The notes under the pieces: generated by a model | What the model was told of the DNA's origin: nothing | The model's input: only the letters and a program-made list of their open reading frames with translations | The model's database searches: none | Made by a program: the position numbers and the translations under genes | Shown here: one piece after another, positions 26,388 to 32,705 of the stretch | Position numbering within the stretch: the stretch's first letter is position 1 | Layout: every line of letters begins with the position of its first letter | Assembly: GCA_041665845.1 (NCBI GenBank) | Contig: JBAYIC010000009.1 | Location: 1 to 52,802, forward strand | Direction of reading: 5' to 3' | DNA: 52,802 nucleotides | Origin: Patescibacteria group bacterium | Lineage (GTDB): Bacteria; Patescibacteriota; Patescibacteriia; Patescibacteriales; UBA12465

Positions 26388-27152
26388 TTGAAAAACAATA
26401 TGAGTTTAAAAGAAAGAGTCGAATATGCCGCGATGAAAGCGCGTCATGAAAATAAATTACGTCCCTGGTATAAAAAATGGTGGGGTATTATTTTAATAGG
26501 TCTTAGTGCAATTATTCTAATATTTATCATCGCCTCCGGAATTTATGTTGTTCAGCAAATACAAAATATAAATAACGGCGTCTCGCTAGAAAATCTAGAA
26601 GAACAACGACAAAAATATTTAACTGCCATAAATGGCGCTTCTGATAATACTTGGGGAGCGAAAACAGCGTCGATTACTATTGTTGAATTTTCAGATTTTG
26701 CTTGTCCATATTGCAAACAATCTTATGCGGGATTAAAAAACATCAGGGAAAAATATGCCGATAGGGTAAGGATTGTTTATCGCGATTATCCTCTTCATGA
26801 TAATTCAATCTTTCTTGCTCTTTCCGCCCGTTGCGCCGGTGAACAAGGAAAATTTTCCGAAGCTCATGATATCTTTTTTGAAAATCAAGAAAAATTTAAT
26901 ATCAGCCAAGAGGAATTAAAAGCGATGATGCCTAATTTAGCGGTTGAATTAGATTTGAATATTAATCAATTTAATACCTGCTTAGAAGAGCAGCGTTATT
27001 TCCCACAAATTAAAAAAGACTACGAAGATGGTAGCTATTTACAAATAAAAGGAACACCAACTTGGTATATAAATAATAATCAATTAACCGGAGCGCTAAC
27101 AACTGAAAAATTACAAGAACTGATAGAAGGCTTGTTAACTACTCAAAAATAA
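26388..27152 (+). CDS. dsbA: Membrane-anchored DsbA-family thiol-disulfide oxidoreductase (start TTG 26388 or ATG 26400)
   Basis: PWYKKWW plus one TM, FSDFACPYC active site, VYRDYPL, and GTPT cis-Pro loop. Confidence 0.85.
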   Translation: MKNNMSLKERVEYAAMKARHENKLRPWYKKWWGIILIGLSAIILIFIIASGIYVVQQIQNINNGVSLENLEEQRQKYLTAINGASDNTWGAKTASITIVEFSDFACPYCKQSYAGLKNIREKYADRVRIVYRDYPLHDNSIFLALSARCAGEQGKFSEAHDIFFENQEKFNISQEELKAMMPNLAVELDLNINQFNTCLEEQRYFPQIKKDYEDGSYLQIKGTPTWYINNNQLTGALTTEKLQELIEGLLTTQK

Positions 27153-27153
27153 T

Positions 27154-27693
27154 ATGGAGCAAATAAGAATTCACGGACGAGGAGGACAAGGCGTTGTAAC
27201 GGCGGCGGAATTAATTGCTATCGCGGCTTTTAATGAAGGTAAATATGCCCAAGCTTTTCCTAATTTTGGAGTTGAAAGAACCGGAGCGCCGATTCAATCC
27301 TATGCTCGAATTTCTAACGAGCCGATAATAACTAGAGAGCAAATATACCATCCGACCGTTCTGATTATTCAAGATGCAACTCTTCTAGAAACAACCGAAA
27401 TAATTAAAGGTACAGATAAAAATACAATTTTCATAATTAACGCTCCTGAAAATTATAAGTTAAGAATAAAATTGCCATCAAAAAAAGTATTTTTTTGCGC
27501 CGCTACTGAAATTGCCTTAGAAATATTTGGTAAAAATATTGTTAATACTATTATTCTCGGCGCTTTTGCTAAACATTCTGGTTTAGTAAATCTAGAAGCT
27601 CTAAAAACGGCGATTAAAGAAAAATTTCAAGATAAAGGCGCCATAATAATTGAAAAAAATATTATCGCAATTGAAAAAGCTTACAATGACTAG
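27154..27693 (+). CDS. porC: Pyruvate/2-oxoacid:ferredoxin oxidoreductase gamma subunit
   Basis: IRIHGRGGQGVVT, FGVERTGAP and NTIILGA motifs. Confidence 0.93.
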   Translation: MEQIRIHGRGGQGVVTAAELIAIAAFNEGKYAQAFPNFGVERTGAPIQSYARISNEPIITREQIYHPTVLIIQDATLLETTEIIKGTDKNTIFIINAPENYKLRIKLPSKKVFFCAATEIALEIFGKNIVNTIILGAFAKHSGLVNLEALKTAIKEKFQDKGAIIIEKNIIAIEKAYND

Positions 27694-27958
27694 AAATATG
27701 AAAAAATTATTAACTATTAAGCCAAATACCTCTTTAAAAAACAAAACTGGAAGTTGGCGAACACATAGACCGATTACCAATCAAGAAAAATGTATTGGTT
27801 GTTCTTTATGCGCTAAACTTTGTCCGGAAGGATGTATCGAAATGATAAATATTAATAATAAATTAAAACCGCAAACTGATTATGACTACTGCAAAGGCTG
27901 TGGTTTATGTGCACACGAATGCCCGGTTAAAGTAATCGATATGAAAGAAGATTACTAA
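27686..27958 (+). CDS. porD: Pyruvate/2-oxoacid:ferredoxin oxidoreductase delta subunit (2x[4Fe-4S])
   Basis: TGSWRTHRP, CIGCSLCAKLCP and CKGCGLCAHECP. An ATG start at 27686 or 27698 is more likely than TTG 27650. Confidence 0.92.
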   Translation: MTRNMKKLLTIKPNTSLKNKTGSWRTHRPITNQEKCIGCSLCAKLCPEGCIEMININNKLKPQTDYDYCKGCGLCAHECPVKVIDMKEDY

Positions 27959-30215: not shown

Positions 30216-30222
30216 AATAATT

Positions 30223-31098
30223 ATGAAAAATACTATCAATAAATTTTTATCGCCCGGTCATAATGCTTGTTCTGGTTGTGGCCAATTATCAGCCGTTCAG
30301 GCGGTGATGCGTGGCTTAACCTCAGATACTATTATTGCTAATGCGACTGGTTGTTTAGAAGTAACTACAACTGCTTACCCGCAAAGCTCATGGGGCTTAC
30401 CTTGGATACATTCCTTATTTGAAAACGCCTCTTCAGTCGCCTCCGGAATTAAAGCGGCCTTAGATAAAAAGGGTAATAAAACAACTAAGGTTTTAGTGCA
30501 GGCTGGTGATGGCGGAACATATGATATTGGTTTGGGACTCATTAGCGGTATGTGGGAAAGGGGCGAAAACATTTTATATATTTGTTATGATACTGAGTCG
30601 TATTCAAATACTGGAATCCAAGCTTCCGGTTCTACTCCATACGGCGCCGCGACTACAACTACTCCAAACGGAGAAAAATCAATTGGTTCTAATCAGGTAA
30701 AAAAAGATATGTTAGCTATCGCTTTAGCCCATGGCTTAAAATATGTTGCTCAAACAGCCGCCGGTTTTCCGGATGATATTACTAACAAAGTTAAAAAAGC
30801 GCTCACTGTTTCTGGACCGGCCTATATACAAATTCTTAGTCCTTGTATCCCGGGCTGGAAAATAAATTACAACGAAGCAGTCATGATGGGGAAATTAGCC
30901 GTTAAAACCGGTCTATACCCGATCTTAGAATATATTAATGGATCACTCATTTCCTCAAGTATAAATAATAATTTTAAACCAGAACCAGTGAGCACCTACT
31001 TAAAGGGTCAGGGACGCTTTAAACATTTAAAAGATGAGGAAATAAAATATATTCAAAATCTTGCTAATGAAAATATCAAAAAATATTCTAAAGTATGA
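30223..31098 (+). CDS. porB: Pyruvate/2-oxoacid:ferredoxin oxidoreductase beta subunit
   Basis: HNACSGCG, ATGCLEV, TPP-binding GDGG...YSNTG and ILSPCIPGW motifs. Confidence 0.95.
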   Translation: MKNTINKFLSPGHNACSGCGQLSAVQAVMRGLTSDTIIANATGCLEVTTTAYPQSSWGLPWIHSLFENASSVASGIKAALDKKGNKTTKVLVQAGDGGTYDIGLGLISGMWERGENILYICYDTESYSNTGIQASGSTPYGAATTTTPNGEKSIGSNQVKKDMLAIALAHGLKYVAQTAAGFPDDITNKVKKALTVSGPAYIQILSPCIPGWKINYNEAVMMGKLAVKTGLYPILEYINGSLISSSINNNFKPEPVSTYLKGQGRFKHLKDEEIKYIQNLANENIKKYSKV

Positions 31099-32705
31099 AA
31101 TTTAAAAAAATTAAAAAAATCATATTTTTGATGGCTATTTTTGGGCCTTGGTTTTTTGCAATTTCCGCTAATGCCGGCGGATGCGGATACGGATGTTACG
31201 AGGCTTATAGTGATTTTAATAAGACTATTGCTCCTTGCACTAATATTGGAGGGACGATTGGAACAACTTTTGGACCAAATCCCCAATGCACAAACACCCC
31301 TAAATGTGGCCTCTATCAAACTCCTATCTGTTGCTGCACTGGCGAAGATAATTTCATAGTTCCTGGCGACGGAGGCATACAACCATCTGACGATGCTCCT
31401 AAATTTGAAATTCCTGATTTACAAGTTGATCTTAATGGTCTTAATTTTACCCAACCAACCTGTACTCAGGACGATAACGGTGAATATCTTTGTAAAGTAA
31501 ATTGGCTCGGGGAATATATTACTTGGATTTATAATTATGCCTTAAAAGTTGCTGGTATTTTAGCGGCGATAGTACTTATGGCTGGCGGAGTGTTATGGCT
31601 CATTTCTAGCGGTGATGCTAGTAAAATAAAACAAGCGAGCGATTTAATAATTGGGGCAGTTACTGGACTTGTTATTCTTCTTTCTTCTTATGTTCTTCTA
31701 ATTACTGTTAACCCAGAGTTAGTAAAATTCCGACCGATAACTATGGGGGCGCTTAGCAATAAGGAGGTTACGGAATTAATAAAGGAAAAAAATTCCGGCC
31801 AATCAGGAACTTATCTTAAAGCTGGTTGTGCAACTGATCAAGAATTAGTAACTGGAGTAAATTTCTATGCAACTGGATACTGCCAACCAACTTGGGCTAA
31901 TACAAAAAAATTCTATTGTGCTATTGCTATGAATTGCTCTTGCCCACCTGGAGTGGGTACTGATACTTCTAAAAATTGTGATGAATTTTTTGTAACTCTA
32001 GCAAAAGCAGGAAAACACTATAGCCCCTGCAATGCTTTTCCTAAAAATATTGATTACTGTAATCGTACTTCGAGTGGCGAAGCTCCATATATCGGCTCAA
32101 TCGCTGGGCCAAAATGCAGCAACTTAAATTATGGCGATAAGGTCTGCTTTAATGGTCGGACTTATACAATTAATGATTCTGGCGGCGCTATTCAAGGTAA
32201 AAGAATAGACATTTGGACGGGAAATTGTGCGGGAACGTCGGCGGTTACCGGAATGGGAGTTTTAACAAAGGGAGCTTGTGGTAGTCAGCCGGCAGTAGTT
32301 ACCGGGAGTTTTAACGGTAGCGCTTGGATAACAGGCGGCGGGAAATTTGATCCTAACATTTTTCTACAATCTGGAGATGCAAGTCCAGAACTGGCTCAAT
32401 TGCTAAATTGTATGCGTACTAAATTAACATCTGGAGTAGGAAGAATCTCTTCAATCAGCGATAGTAAATTTATTGGTAATCTAGGCGTTTGTAATACTAC
32501 TAAATGCAAGGGTTGCGCCCATAAATGCTATTCTTGCCATTATGGCGGTGGAGTATCTACCAATAAATCTTATGCGGTTGATTTTGGAGATGAAGAAAAC
32601 ATGACCGCTTTAATAGCGGCGGCTAAGGCATGCAGCCCTGATGCTTATACACTCGACGAAGATAATCATCTTCACGTTAGCGTCTCTAAATGTTCAGGAA
32701 AATAA
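31095..32705 (+). CDS. T4SS-pilin-like protein fused to a 3D (MltA-like) domain and a C-terminal M15/LAS-like Zn-peptidase domain; 30 Cys
   Basis: Signal peptide ending ANA; pilin-like hairpin at aa ~140-210; FYATGY...RTSSG...TINDSGGAIQGKRIDIW; SCHYGG...AVDF...NHLHVS. Confidence 0.68.
   Translation: MKFKKIKKIIFLMAIFGPWFFAISANAGGCGYGCYEAYSDFNKTIAPCTNIGGTIGTTFGPNPQCTNTPKCGLYQTPICCCTGEDNFIVPGDGGIQPSDDAPKFEIPDLQVDLNGLNFTQPTCTQDDNGEYLCKVNWLGEYITWIYNYALKVAGILAAIVLMAGGVLWLISSGDASKIKQASDLIIGAVTGLVILLSSYVLLITVNPELVKFRPITMGALSNKEVTELIKEKNSGQSGTYLKAGCATDQELVTGVNFYATGYCQPTWANTKKFYCAIAMNCSCPPGVGTDTSKNCDEFFVTLAKAGKHYSPCNAFPKNIDYCNRTSSGEAPYIGSIAGPKCSNLNYGDKVCFNGRTYTINDSGGAIQGKRIDIWTGNCAGTSAVTGMGVLTKGACGSQPAVVTGSFNGSAWITGGGKFDPNIFLQSGDASPELAQLLNCMRTKLTSGVGRISSISDSKFIGNLGVCNTTKCKGCAHKCYSCHYGGGVSTNKSYAVDFGDEENMTALIAAAKACSPDAYTLDEDNHLHVSVSKCSGK

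Follow-up and report, generated by a model that had tools for sequence, protein, structure and literature searches.

The operons for pyruvate:ferredoxin oxidoreductase (POR), a central enzyme of fermentation, and the VirB2-like pilins of Patescibacteria are both known. The VirB2-like family PF18895 is widespread in these bacteria, with pilin arrays near virB4, and the conjugation systems of monoderm bacteria have two-domain hydrolases of the VirB1 type and of the PrgK/TcpG type (Quinonero-Coronel et al., PMC12102498). Here we describe a locus in which por genes are interleaved with genes for proteins that carry a VirB2-type hairpin. It lies in a stretch of 52,802 nucleotides (nt) from an ultra-small Patescibacteria group bacterium of the Falkowbacteria type (GenBank JBAYIC010000009.1, assembly GCA_041665845.1; hereafter 'the window', meaning the whole stretch), which is contig C9 of the source genome G000 (1.04 Mb, 97% complete, about 35% G+C). 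Seven co-directional genes on the + strand, at 26388-32705, encode in order a DsbA-like protein, PorC, PorD, PorA, a membrane protein with the hairpin (hairpin protein 1), PorB and a second such protein (hairpin protein 2); a terminator follows. The conserved interleaving appears to be undescribed, and so does the fact that, across the class, a DsbA-like gene is paired with genes for hairpin-anchored, disulfide-rich proteins. In the searchable literature, we found no description of the interleaved arrangement or of the dsbA-hairpin module, and no paper combining DsbA and the Candidate Phyla Radiation.

It is likely, in our judgement, that the locus is a composite operon, in which the por genes are embedded in an older envelope operon and probably co-transcribed with it, with no obligatory functional coupling between the two. 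The interleaved layout itself is real and old. The genes porA and porB and the PF18895 domains were located in 40 relatives, and about 14 kb around each por locus was examined; gene orders come from calling of open reading frames (ORFs), BLASTP against the window's proteins and a hidden Markov model of the pilin domain. An alignment of porB was also run against one genome per GTDB species. Wherever a Falkowbacteria-type contig carries both porA and porB (40 of 40 loci), the two are separated by one or two hairpin genes, and a dsbA-like gene lies upstream of porC in 39 of the 40 (in the remaining locus, L061, the contig starts inside porA). The por operons of outgroups (Margulisiibacteriota, Omnitrophota, Planctomycetota, Chloroflexota, Thermodesulfobacteriota, methanogens and others) have adjacent porA and porB, no hairpin gene and no dsbA in 53 of 53 cases, which bears out the premise of the original prediction that porCDAB is normally contiguous. 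Related genomes that have lost por keep the dsbA-like and hairpin genes at the same place, as described below.

The interleaved locus and its relatives

The features of the block are as follows.

26346-26354, + strand: extended -10 promoter element TGtTATAAT (putative function), in the 48-nt divergent spacer between xth (- strand) and the dsbA-like gene
26388-27152, + strand: dsbA-like thiol:disulfide oxidoreductase gene; alternative ATG start at 26400
27154-27693, + strand: porC, gamma subunit of 2-oxoacid:ferredoxin oxidoreductase (PF01558, TIGR02175)
27650-27958 (ORF), + strand: porD, delta subunit (TIGR02179, Fer4 families); probable ATG start at 27686 or 27698
27980-29143, + strand: porA, alpha subunit (POR_N, PFOR_II)
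29160-30215, + strand: hairpin protein 1, 351 residues (PF18895); hairpin at about residues 64-139, nt 29349-29576
30223-31098, + strand: porB, beta subunit (TPP_enzyme_C, PRK11865)
31095-32705, + strand: hairpin protein 2, 536 residues with 30 cysteines (PF18895); hairpin at residues 135-210, nt 31497-31724
32717-32749, no strand assigned: intrinsic terminator hairpin, a 15-bp stem between an A-run and a U-run

This is the order that had been predicted, dsbA-porC-porD-porA-pilin-like-porB-pilin-like-terminator, and por is not contiguous here: the gene for the 351-residue hairpin protein stands between porA and porB. The predicted spacings can be verified as well. The gaps are 1 nt between dsbA and porC, 21 nt between porD and porA, 16 nt between porA and hairpin gene 1, and 7 nt between hairpin gene 1 and porB; porB and hairpin gene 2 share the 4-nt overlap ATGA at 31095-31098. 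The porC/porD junction is an 8-nt overlap if the ATG of porD is at 27686 and a 4-nt gap if it is at 27698 (the PorD proteins of relatives have 85-94 residues). The block also proves to be inverted relative to the rest of the window, as had been noticed: it is the only + strand block, made up of porD and six long ORFs; the - strand has 27 long ORFs, and the GC skew flips together with the block. The immediate neighbours of the hairpin genes are dsbA, the por genes, rnhA and xth rather than virB4 or other genes of a type IV secretion system (T4SS), and rnhA is convergent to the operon beyond the terminator. An Rfam scan of 25500-33500 gave no match.

The comparison of sister genomes that the original prediction had called for yields the 40 loci with a hairpin gene between porA and porB. 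Mis-assembly at the junctions, which would have undone the prediction, is rejected because the layout recurs in 40 independent assemblies, among them single-contig genomes of 0.8-1.0 Mb. The layout varies within limits: more distant families have the two hairpin genes in the porA/porB interval; the window's genus has the second one behind porB; tandem duplicates occur occasionally, and some genomes have no gene after porB. Median gaps in the relatives are 1.5 nt from porA to the hairpin gene, 22 nt from the hairpin gene to porB and 1 nt from porB to the hairpin gene. In more distant families, the gap between the hairpin gene and porB reaches 0.4-1.7 kb and contains GIY-YIG, PD-(D/E)XK and HigB-type toxin genes. 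Small selfish genes of these kinds sit among the dsbA, por and hairpin genes there, and include a GIY-YIG nuclease, a HigB/RelE-type toxin with its DUF2283 partner and a PD-(D/E)XK nuclease (L055:7860-8162, L055:10656-11522 and L050:5127-5519). Outgroup gaps between porA and porB range from -83 to +210 nt, except for the anomalous L136, with split por gene calls and a computed gap of -463 nt.

Other Patescibacteria with por mostly have adjacent porA and porB. In three genomes of other patescibacterial families, a GDPD gene lies between the two (L147:729-1436, L151:2387-3175 and L156:591-1340), and a response-regulator-like ORF (L165) or an EamA fragment (L161) is found at the same junction elsewhere in Patescibacteria. 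With unrelated genes at this point in some lineages, the porA/porB junction therefore seems to be a recurrent, insert-tolerant point in Patescibacteria.

The encoded proteins

All four subunit types of the oxidoreductase (gamma, delta, alpha and beta) are present and intact, with Pfam matches above the cut-offs. PorC matches PF01558 (140.8 bits) and TIGR02175 (200 bits against a cut-off of 81), and PorD matches TIGR02179 (98.8 bits against a cut-off of 60) and Fer4 families. PorD has two [4Fe-4S] motifs of the form CxxCxxCxxxCP, CIGCSLCAKLCP and CKGCGLCAHECP. PorA, encoded by a single-copy gene in the genome, matches POR_N (231 bits) and PFOR_II (87.5 bits); PorB, the subunit that would bind TPP and a [4Fe-4S] cluster, matches TPP_enzyme_C (70 bits) and has the invariant cysteines C16, C19, C44 and C208. 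Among the NCBIfam equivalogs, the best models are those for PorA, PorB and PorC, with scores below the cut-offs (435 against 550, 345 for PRK11865 against 405, and 214 against 225, respectively), and VOR models score somewhat lower. Because the PorA and PorB equivalog scores fall below their cut-offs, the substrate could be pyruvate or another 2-oxoacid.

The DsbA-like protein matches Thioredoxin_4 (PF13462, 105.6 bits) and DSBA (PF01323, 62.6 bits). Its active site is FACPYC (CPYC), and a hydrophobic stretch at about residues 32-56 forms an N-terminal membrane anchor. Hairpin proteins linked to por have 6-30 cysteines outside the hairpin, compared with 0-2 in the nine small pilins of the genome. 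The original prediction called the first gene product the disulfide catalyst of its neighbours, and a DsbA-like gene does fit two proteins with 20 and 30 cysteines; most likely, the enzyme forms the disulfides of their outer domains. As an observation on the genome as a whole, G000 has two DsbA-like genes (the second at C2:18386-19114) and several exported proteins with 20-104 cysteines, yet it lacks DsbB and VKOR.

The proteins first described as pilin-like are, by their profile matches, hairpins of the VirB2/T4SS type (PF18895); the resemblance to pilins thus stands in that sense, and type IV pilins they are not. Hmmscan scores against PF18895 are just below the 26.6-bit cut-off (25.0 bits for protein 1 and 22.6 for protein 2), and a six-frame search of the genome gives 29.0 and 26.6 bits. 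Orthologues score 34-41 bits, and many homologues carry a precomputed PF18895 annotation. The genome has 13 PF18895 domains. Nine are in small proteins of 127-176 residues with 0-2 cysteines, including a tandem array of small pilins of the kind described in PMC12102498; the other four are in proteins with large cysteine-rich extensions, namely the two considered here (20 and 30 cysteines) and two giants encoded on another contig (26 and 104 cysteines). In a tree of the hairpin region, a single clade (support 100/99) holds 85 of 85 por-linked hairpins and excludes the genome's other 11 pilin-domain genes. Within the genus, genes between porA and porB (98/89, including that of protein 1) belong to one orthologous lineage and genes after porB (99/80) to another. 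The subfamily profile A5, which is invariant at Y, W and NPxL (the last of these after helix 2), separates its members (98-132 bits) from other pilins (at most 59 bits).

AlphaFold2 models each protein with a hydrophobic helix at the N-terminus and, further on, two more such helices joined by a short polar loop; the N-termini resemble signal peptides and would presumably be cleaved. The hairpin region, loop included, is the conserved part. The ectodomains evolve fast and are swapped among relatives, with 31-70% identity compared with 56-86% for PorA. In L046, L048, L054, L068, L044 and L070, tandem duplicates have identical or nearly identical hairpins and ectodomains of different lengths, which points to recent duplication or to gene conversion restricted to the anchor.

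Protein 1 is modelled with a mean pLDDT (predicted local distance difference test) of 70, hairpin helices at residues 66-99 and 104-134, and a beta-rich ectodomain at pLDDT 75-87. The cysteine framework of this outer domain, with 20 cysteines, is conserved in 28 homologues. Foldseek found no fold match for protein 1 in the PDB (best E = 4.7), and Pfam gave no meaningful match to the isolated ectodomain.

The predicted order of parts in protein 2 is a signal-peptide-like N-terminus, a cysteine-rich N-domain, the VirB2-type hairpin, an MltA/3D-like domain (about residues 250-395) and a domain resembling zinc peptidases of the Hedgehog/LAS type (about residues 405-536). Its AlphaFold2 model has a mean pLDDT of 77 and hairpin helices at 137-170 and 175-205. 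With the isolated middle segment, the Pfam 3D domain reaches E = 4.3e-4; its 20.9 bits fall short of the 23.8-bit cut-off. Foldseek relates protein 2 to MltA (2gae, probability 0.94) and YuiC (4wjt, 0.91), with modest E values of 0.02-0.15 and low whole-query TM-scores; the full-length model was matched only via the 3D-like domain. Two of the three aspartates can be read in TINDSGGAIQGKRID, and the first position reads IAGP (the motif was read by eye). At least 385 cluster representatives make up the family of the C-terminal 130 or so residues, which has invariant H, H, D, D and HxH; H78, D92 and H121-x-H123 do not vary among 21 diverse members. In a PDB profile search with this family, all of the top 22 matches are Hedgehog N-terminal domains, and they are weak (E = 0.016-0.61). 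A PDB profile search with the full-length alignment of protein 2 gave no match.

Homologues of protein 2 share its N-terminal part and hairpin and end instead in VanY, Amidase_2, NlpC/P60, Amidase_5 or C39-like domains, and one orthologue carries an SLT domain. With its catalytic end swapped in this way among homologues, protein 2 would therefore be one of a set of hairpin-anchored predicted wall hydrolases with exchangeable ends.

The envelope module, transcription and rival explanations

The hairpin subfamily is present in 58 of 81 genomes sampled across the class, most of them without por. In a sample of 401 genomes across the phylum, porB is found in 36, only one of which is a class-level genome outside the order. 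Among 29 class-level loci that show no por genes, 10 have dsbA directly upstream of a hairpin subfamily gene. G293, which falls in another order of the class, shows the arrangement dsbA-porC-porD-porA-hairpin-porB. Within the window's own genus, G016 (96% complete) has no porA or porB anywhere. A single contig of this genome (L200, G016:C15:1-13711) has leuS, xth, dsbA, a hairpin 1-type gene (24 cysteines), a hairpin 2-type gene, rnhA and recJ; it is syntenic with the window, in the same orientation and with the same TGnTATAAT motif upstream of dsbA. No remnant of por can be detected in G016, where all tblastn matches of Por proteins have E > 0.8. Two other genomes without por fit this picture: in G004, a hairpin 2-type gene adjoins rnhA and recJ on a stretch that runs to the contig end (L199, G004:C6:15000-24875), and G028, from another family, has dsbA followed by a hairpin gene. 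In a recJ tree, G016 and G004 are nested within the por-bearing genus (97/98, subclade 90/87), and so their loss of por is secondary. Given the wider spread of the subfamily, its retention where por is absent and this secondary loss, the DsbA-hairpin module is therefore the stable core of the locus, and por a dispensable embedded module.

Two further loci may be described here for their gene order. In L243 (G463:C1:5000-24900), two modules, each consisting of a DsbA gene, an unknown gene (418 residues) and two hairpin genes, form a large inverted duplication and face each other. In L216 (G441, same class), porA is followed by a hairpin gene (319 residues, 23 cysteines) and then by a leuS-like ORF at the position expected for porB.

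In 36 of 41 related loci, the last 150 nt before dsbA contain an element resembling TGnTATAAT. Upstream of porC, porD, porA, the hairpin genes and porB, the corresponding counts of extended -10 elements are 0-9, and those found deviate from the perfect motif and lack conservation. The terminator at 32717-32749 folds with -16.1 kcal/mol (z = -5.9; 0 of 200 shuffles fold as well), and it can act bidirectionally, between the operon and the convergent rnhA. Inside the block, terminator-like matches are at chance (nine, against 6.4 +/- 2.2 expected from shuffled sequence), in keeping with the earlier statement that there is no internal terminator; promoter-like matches are at chance as well (27, against 29.1 +/- 5.3). 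Because the junctions are tiny, the extended -10 element is conserved only before dsbA and there is a single terminator, one main transcript is likely; the seven genes are probably one transcription unit with a promoter upstream of dsbA.

The composite operon that we favour would have arisen and would work in the following way. Of its two unrelated modules, one is an envelope set, with a membrane-anchored DsbA-like oxidoreductase and two exported, hairpin-anchored membrane proteins; the other is a cytoplasmic, four-subunit oxidoreductase of the pyruvate type, encoded by porCDAB. The embedding of por in the envelope operon would date back to an ancestor that the Falkowbacteria-type order shares with one or more further orders of the class; porCDA lies behind dsbA and ahead of the hairpin genes, and porB follows the hairpin genes or stands between them. 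The one extended -10 promoter would drive all seven genes, and the one terminator would end the transcript. After export by Sec, the DsbA-like enzyme would oxidise the cysteine-rich outer domains of both hairpin proteins. Protein 2 may cut peptidoglycan, that of its own cell or of a partner cell, via its two probable cleaving domains; protein 1 may be a disulfide-stabilised surface domain; and POR would work independently in the cytoplasm. The interleaving would persist since breaking it would orphan genes from the promoter. With one promoter and one terminator, the coupling would therefore be transcriptional and historical rather than biochemical.

Several observations pull the other way. The interleaving takes at least two rearrangements. 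Every por-bearing genome of the lineage is interleaved, and none was found to have por without hairpin genes; this universality could reflect selection on the arrangement rather than just inertia. A promoter-like site, TTGCCA-16-TACAAT (10 of 12 positions), lies at 29879-29906 inside hairpin gene 1, and in 10 of 46 loci, chiefly those of genomes with longer gaps, porB is preceded by imperfect -10-like motifs. The disulfide chemistry has its own difficulty: no homologue of DsbB (PF02600) or VKOR (PF07884) was found in the 97%-complete genome, although both models match in control genomes, and for that reason the DsbA-like enzyme may work in either redox direction. A few subfamily members of relatives without por have only 0-1 cysteines. 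As to the C-terminal domain of protein 2, its assignment to zinc peptidases is suggestive and weak. Hhalign gives 2% probability for this family against the VanY domains of the paralogous hairpin proteins, and Pfam gives no meaningful match to the isolated domain, with no M15 model among its results. Membership in M15B was considered and, with that hhalign result, is not claimed.

The original prediction held that energy metabolism is hard-wired to be co-expressed with surface proteins, as needed upon host attachment. The locus does look like one transcription unit; hard-wiring for a need upon host attachment finds no support here, given the retention of dsbA, hairpin gene 1 and hairpin gene 2 in G016 without por and the dsbA-hairpin pairs across the class at loci that show no por genes. 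In a broader form, the interleaving itself may be selected, for co-regulation (e.g., upon host attachment) or for tethering of mRNA or POR assembly to the membrane via Sec-targeted cistrons. This would explain why the arrangement is kept in all 40 por-bearing loci, across many families and even with differing flanks, and the junctions, including the ATGA overlap, are compatible with translational coupling. We nevertheless consider it unlikely, for the same two reasons as above and because the gap that holds selfish genes in distant families implies that tight coupling has not been maintained. It is improbable, too, that the genes are merely adjacent, with promoters inside coding sequences regulating the hairpin genes and porB separately. 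The site in hairpin gene 1 and the motifs before porB would serve such a scheme, but promoter-like sites do not exceed the shuffle expectation, a perfect extended -10 element is conserved before dsbA alone, no terminator separates the genes, and the junctions, which range between a 4-nt overlap and a 21-nt gap, are too tight for intergenic regulation.

The hairpin proteins could also be accessory subunits of POR that anchor or dock it at the membrane through the short cytoplasmic loop between the helices, given that one hairpin gene always occupies the slot between porA and porB and that the loop belongs to the conserved region. We think this very improbable: the predicted topology leaves about 14 residues in the cytoplasm and nearly all of each protein outside, with 20-30 cysteines that would suit a DsbA acting beyond the cytoplasm; the subfamily occurs mostly in genomes without por and survives por loss in G016 and G004; its ectodomains are fast-evolving and swapped; and canonical POR does without such a subunit in the 53 outgroup operons. 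A redox link between POR and DsbA, with disulfide electrons passing to or from ferredoxin, was also rejected, as relatives without por keep dsbA and the hairpin genes; the redox potentials are moreover the wrong way round for electron flow between disulfides and ferredoxin. Finally, the original prediction offered repeated insertion of pilin-like cassettes into highly expressed operons as its alternative. The tandem duplicates with identical or nearly identical hairpins speak for mobile cassettes or misassembly, and so do the unrelated genes at the porA/porB junction elsewhere (three GDPD genes, the response-regulator gene and the EamA fragment). That the hairpin genes are recent or repeated mobile cassettes, or artefacts of assembly, is nonetheless hardly credible: they have a single origin and stable orthologous lineages, the same order recurs between assemblies, no integrase, transposase or repeat was seen at their junctions (with gaps of 16 and 7 nt), and their base composition is like that of the neighbouring genes. 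Recent horizontal acquisition as a cassette is rejected on the same grounds of composition and single origin.

Should the coupling be only transcriptional, as we judge most likely, the locus would be a moderate biological surprise. Striking and clade-defining as the arrangement is, the evidence favours shared transcription over a shared machine. The locus offers a natural experiment in reduced genomes, in which a metabolic operon embedded in an envelope operon was long kept and, in some species, excised tracelessly. For annotation, 'pilin' genes in these organisms include genes for large putative surface enzymes and adhesin-like proteins, and a split por operon is not a sign of assembly error. 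The hairpin proteins are also candidates for the wall-cutting and surface-contact functions that are reportedly lacking in the patescibacterial T4SS.

A bolder reading combines two claims, that the dsbA and hairpin genes form a new class-wide envelope system of armed pilins and that selection keeps the sole POR in their operon; taken jointly, they seem to us a rather doubtful proposition. If they were true, the VirB2-type hairpin would be a general anchor or pilus-display platform for swappable, disulfide-rich cargo, including interchangeable wall hydrolases. The system could provide the VirB1-like activity that is missing from the patescibacterial T4SS, or it could cut through a host cell's wall, and fermentative energy supply and host-contact machinery would be switched on together.

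Comparison with known systems

The canonical porCDAB (= porGDAB) operon, known from anaerobic bacteria and archaea, shares with the block all four subunits, their C-D-A-B order and the expected cofactor motifs. The operon here differs in that a membrane-protein gene splits porA from porB, the first gene is dsbA-like and porB is followed by another membrane-protein gene. With the VirB2-like pilins of Patescibacteria, the hairpin proteins have in common a signal-peptide-like N-terminus, two hydrophobic helices with a short polar loop and a match to PF18895, which is borderline for the window's own two proteins. Those pilins have about 130-160 residues, whereas the proteins here have 351 and 536 residues with large cysteine-rich ectodomains, one of which is wall-hydrolase-like; they also form a separate clade with NPxL, and their genes are sited with dsbA and por rather than with virB4.

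The two probable cleaving domains of protein 2 each have a described counterpart. MltA and YuiC are lytic transglycosylases with a double-psi beta-barrel, and the middle domain keeps their D-x-G-G-x-I-x-G-x-R-I-D motif; unlike them, it is studded with cysteines and has IAGP at the position of the first aspartate. The counterparts of the C-terminal family are Hedgehog N-terminal domains and the LAS group of zinc hydrolases (DD-peptidases, M15-type); the family aligns over S-x-H-Y-x-G...A-V-D and N-H-x-H-V-S-V, the segments with the zinc ligands in Hedgehog, and has an insertion of about seven residues between the H and D ligands. Taken as a whole, protein 2 is comparable to the VirB1- and PrgK/TcpG-type hydrolases of conjugation systems, in that it is likewise membrane-associated and has two predicted wall-cleaving modules, one resembling lytic transglycosylases and the other peptidases. 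It differs from them in pairing an MltA/3D-like with a Hedgehog/LAS-like domain rather than SLT with CHAP, in its pilin-type anchor and in the position of its gene outside a T4SS cluster; wall cleavage by protein 2 is a prediction.

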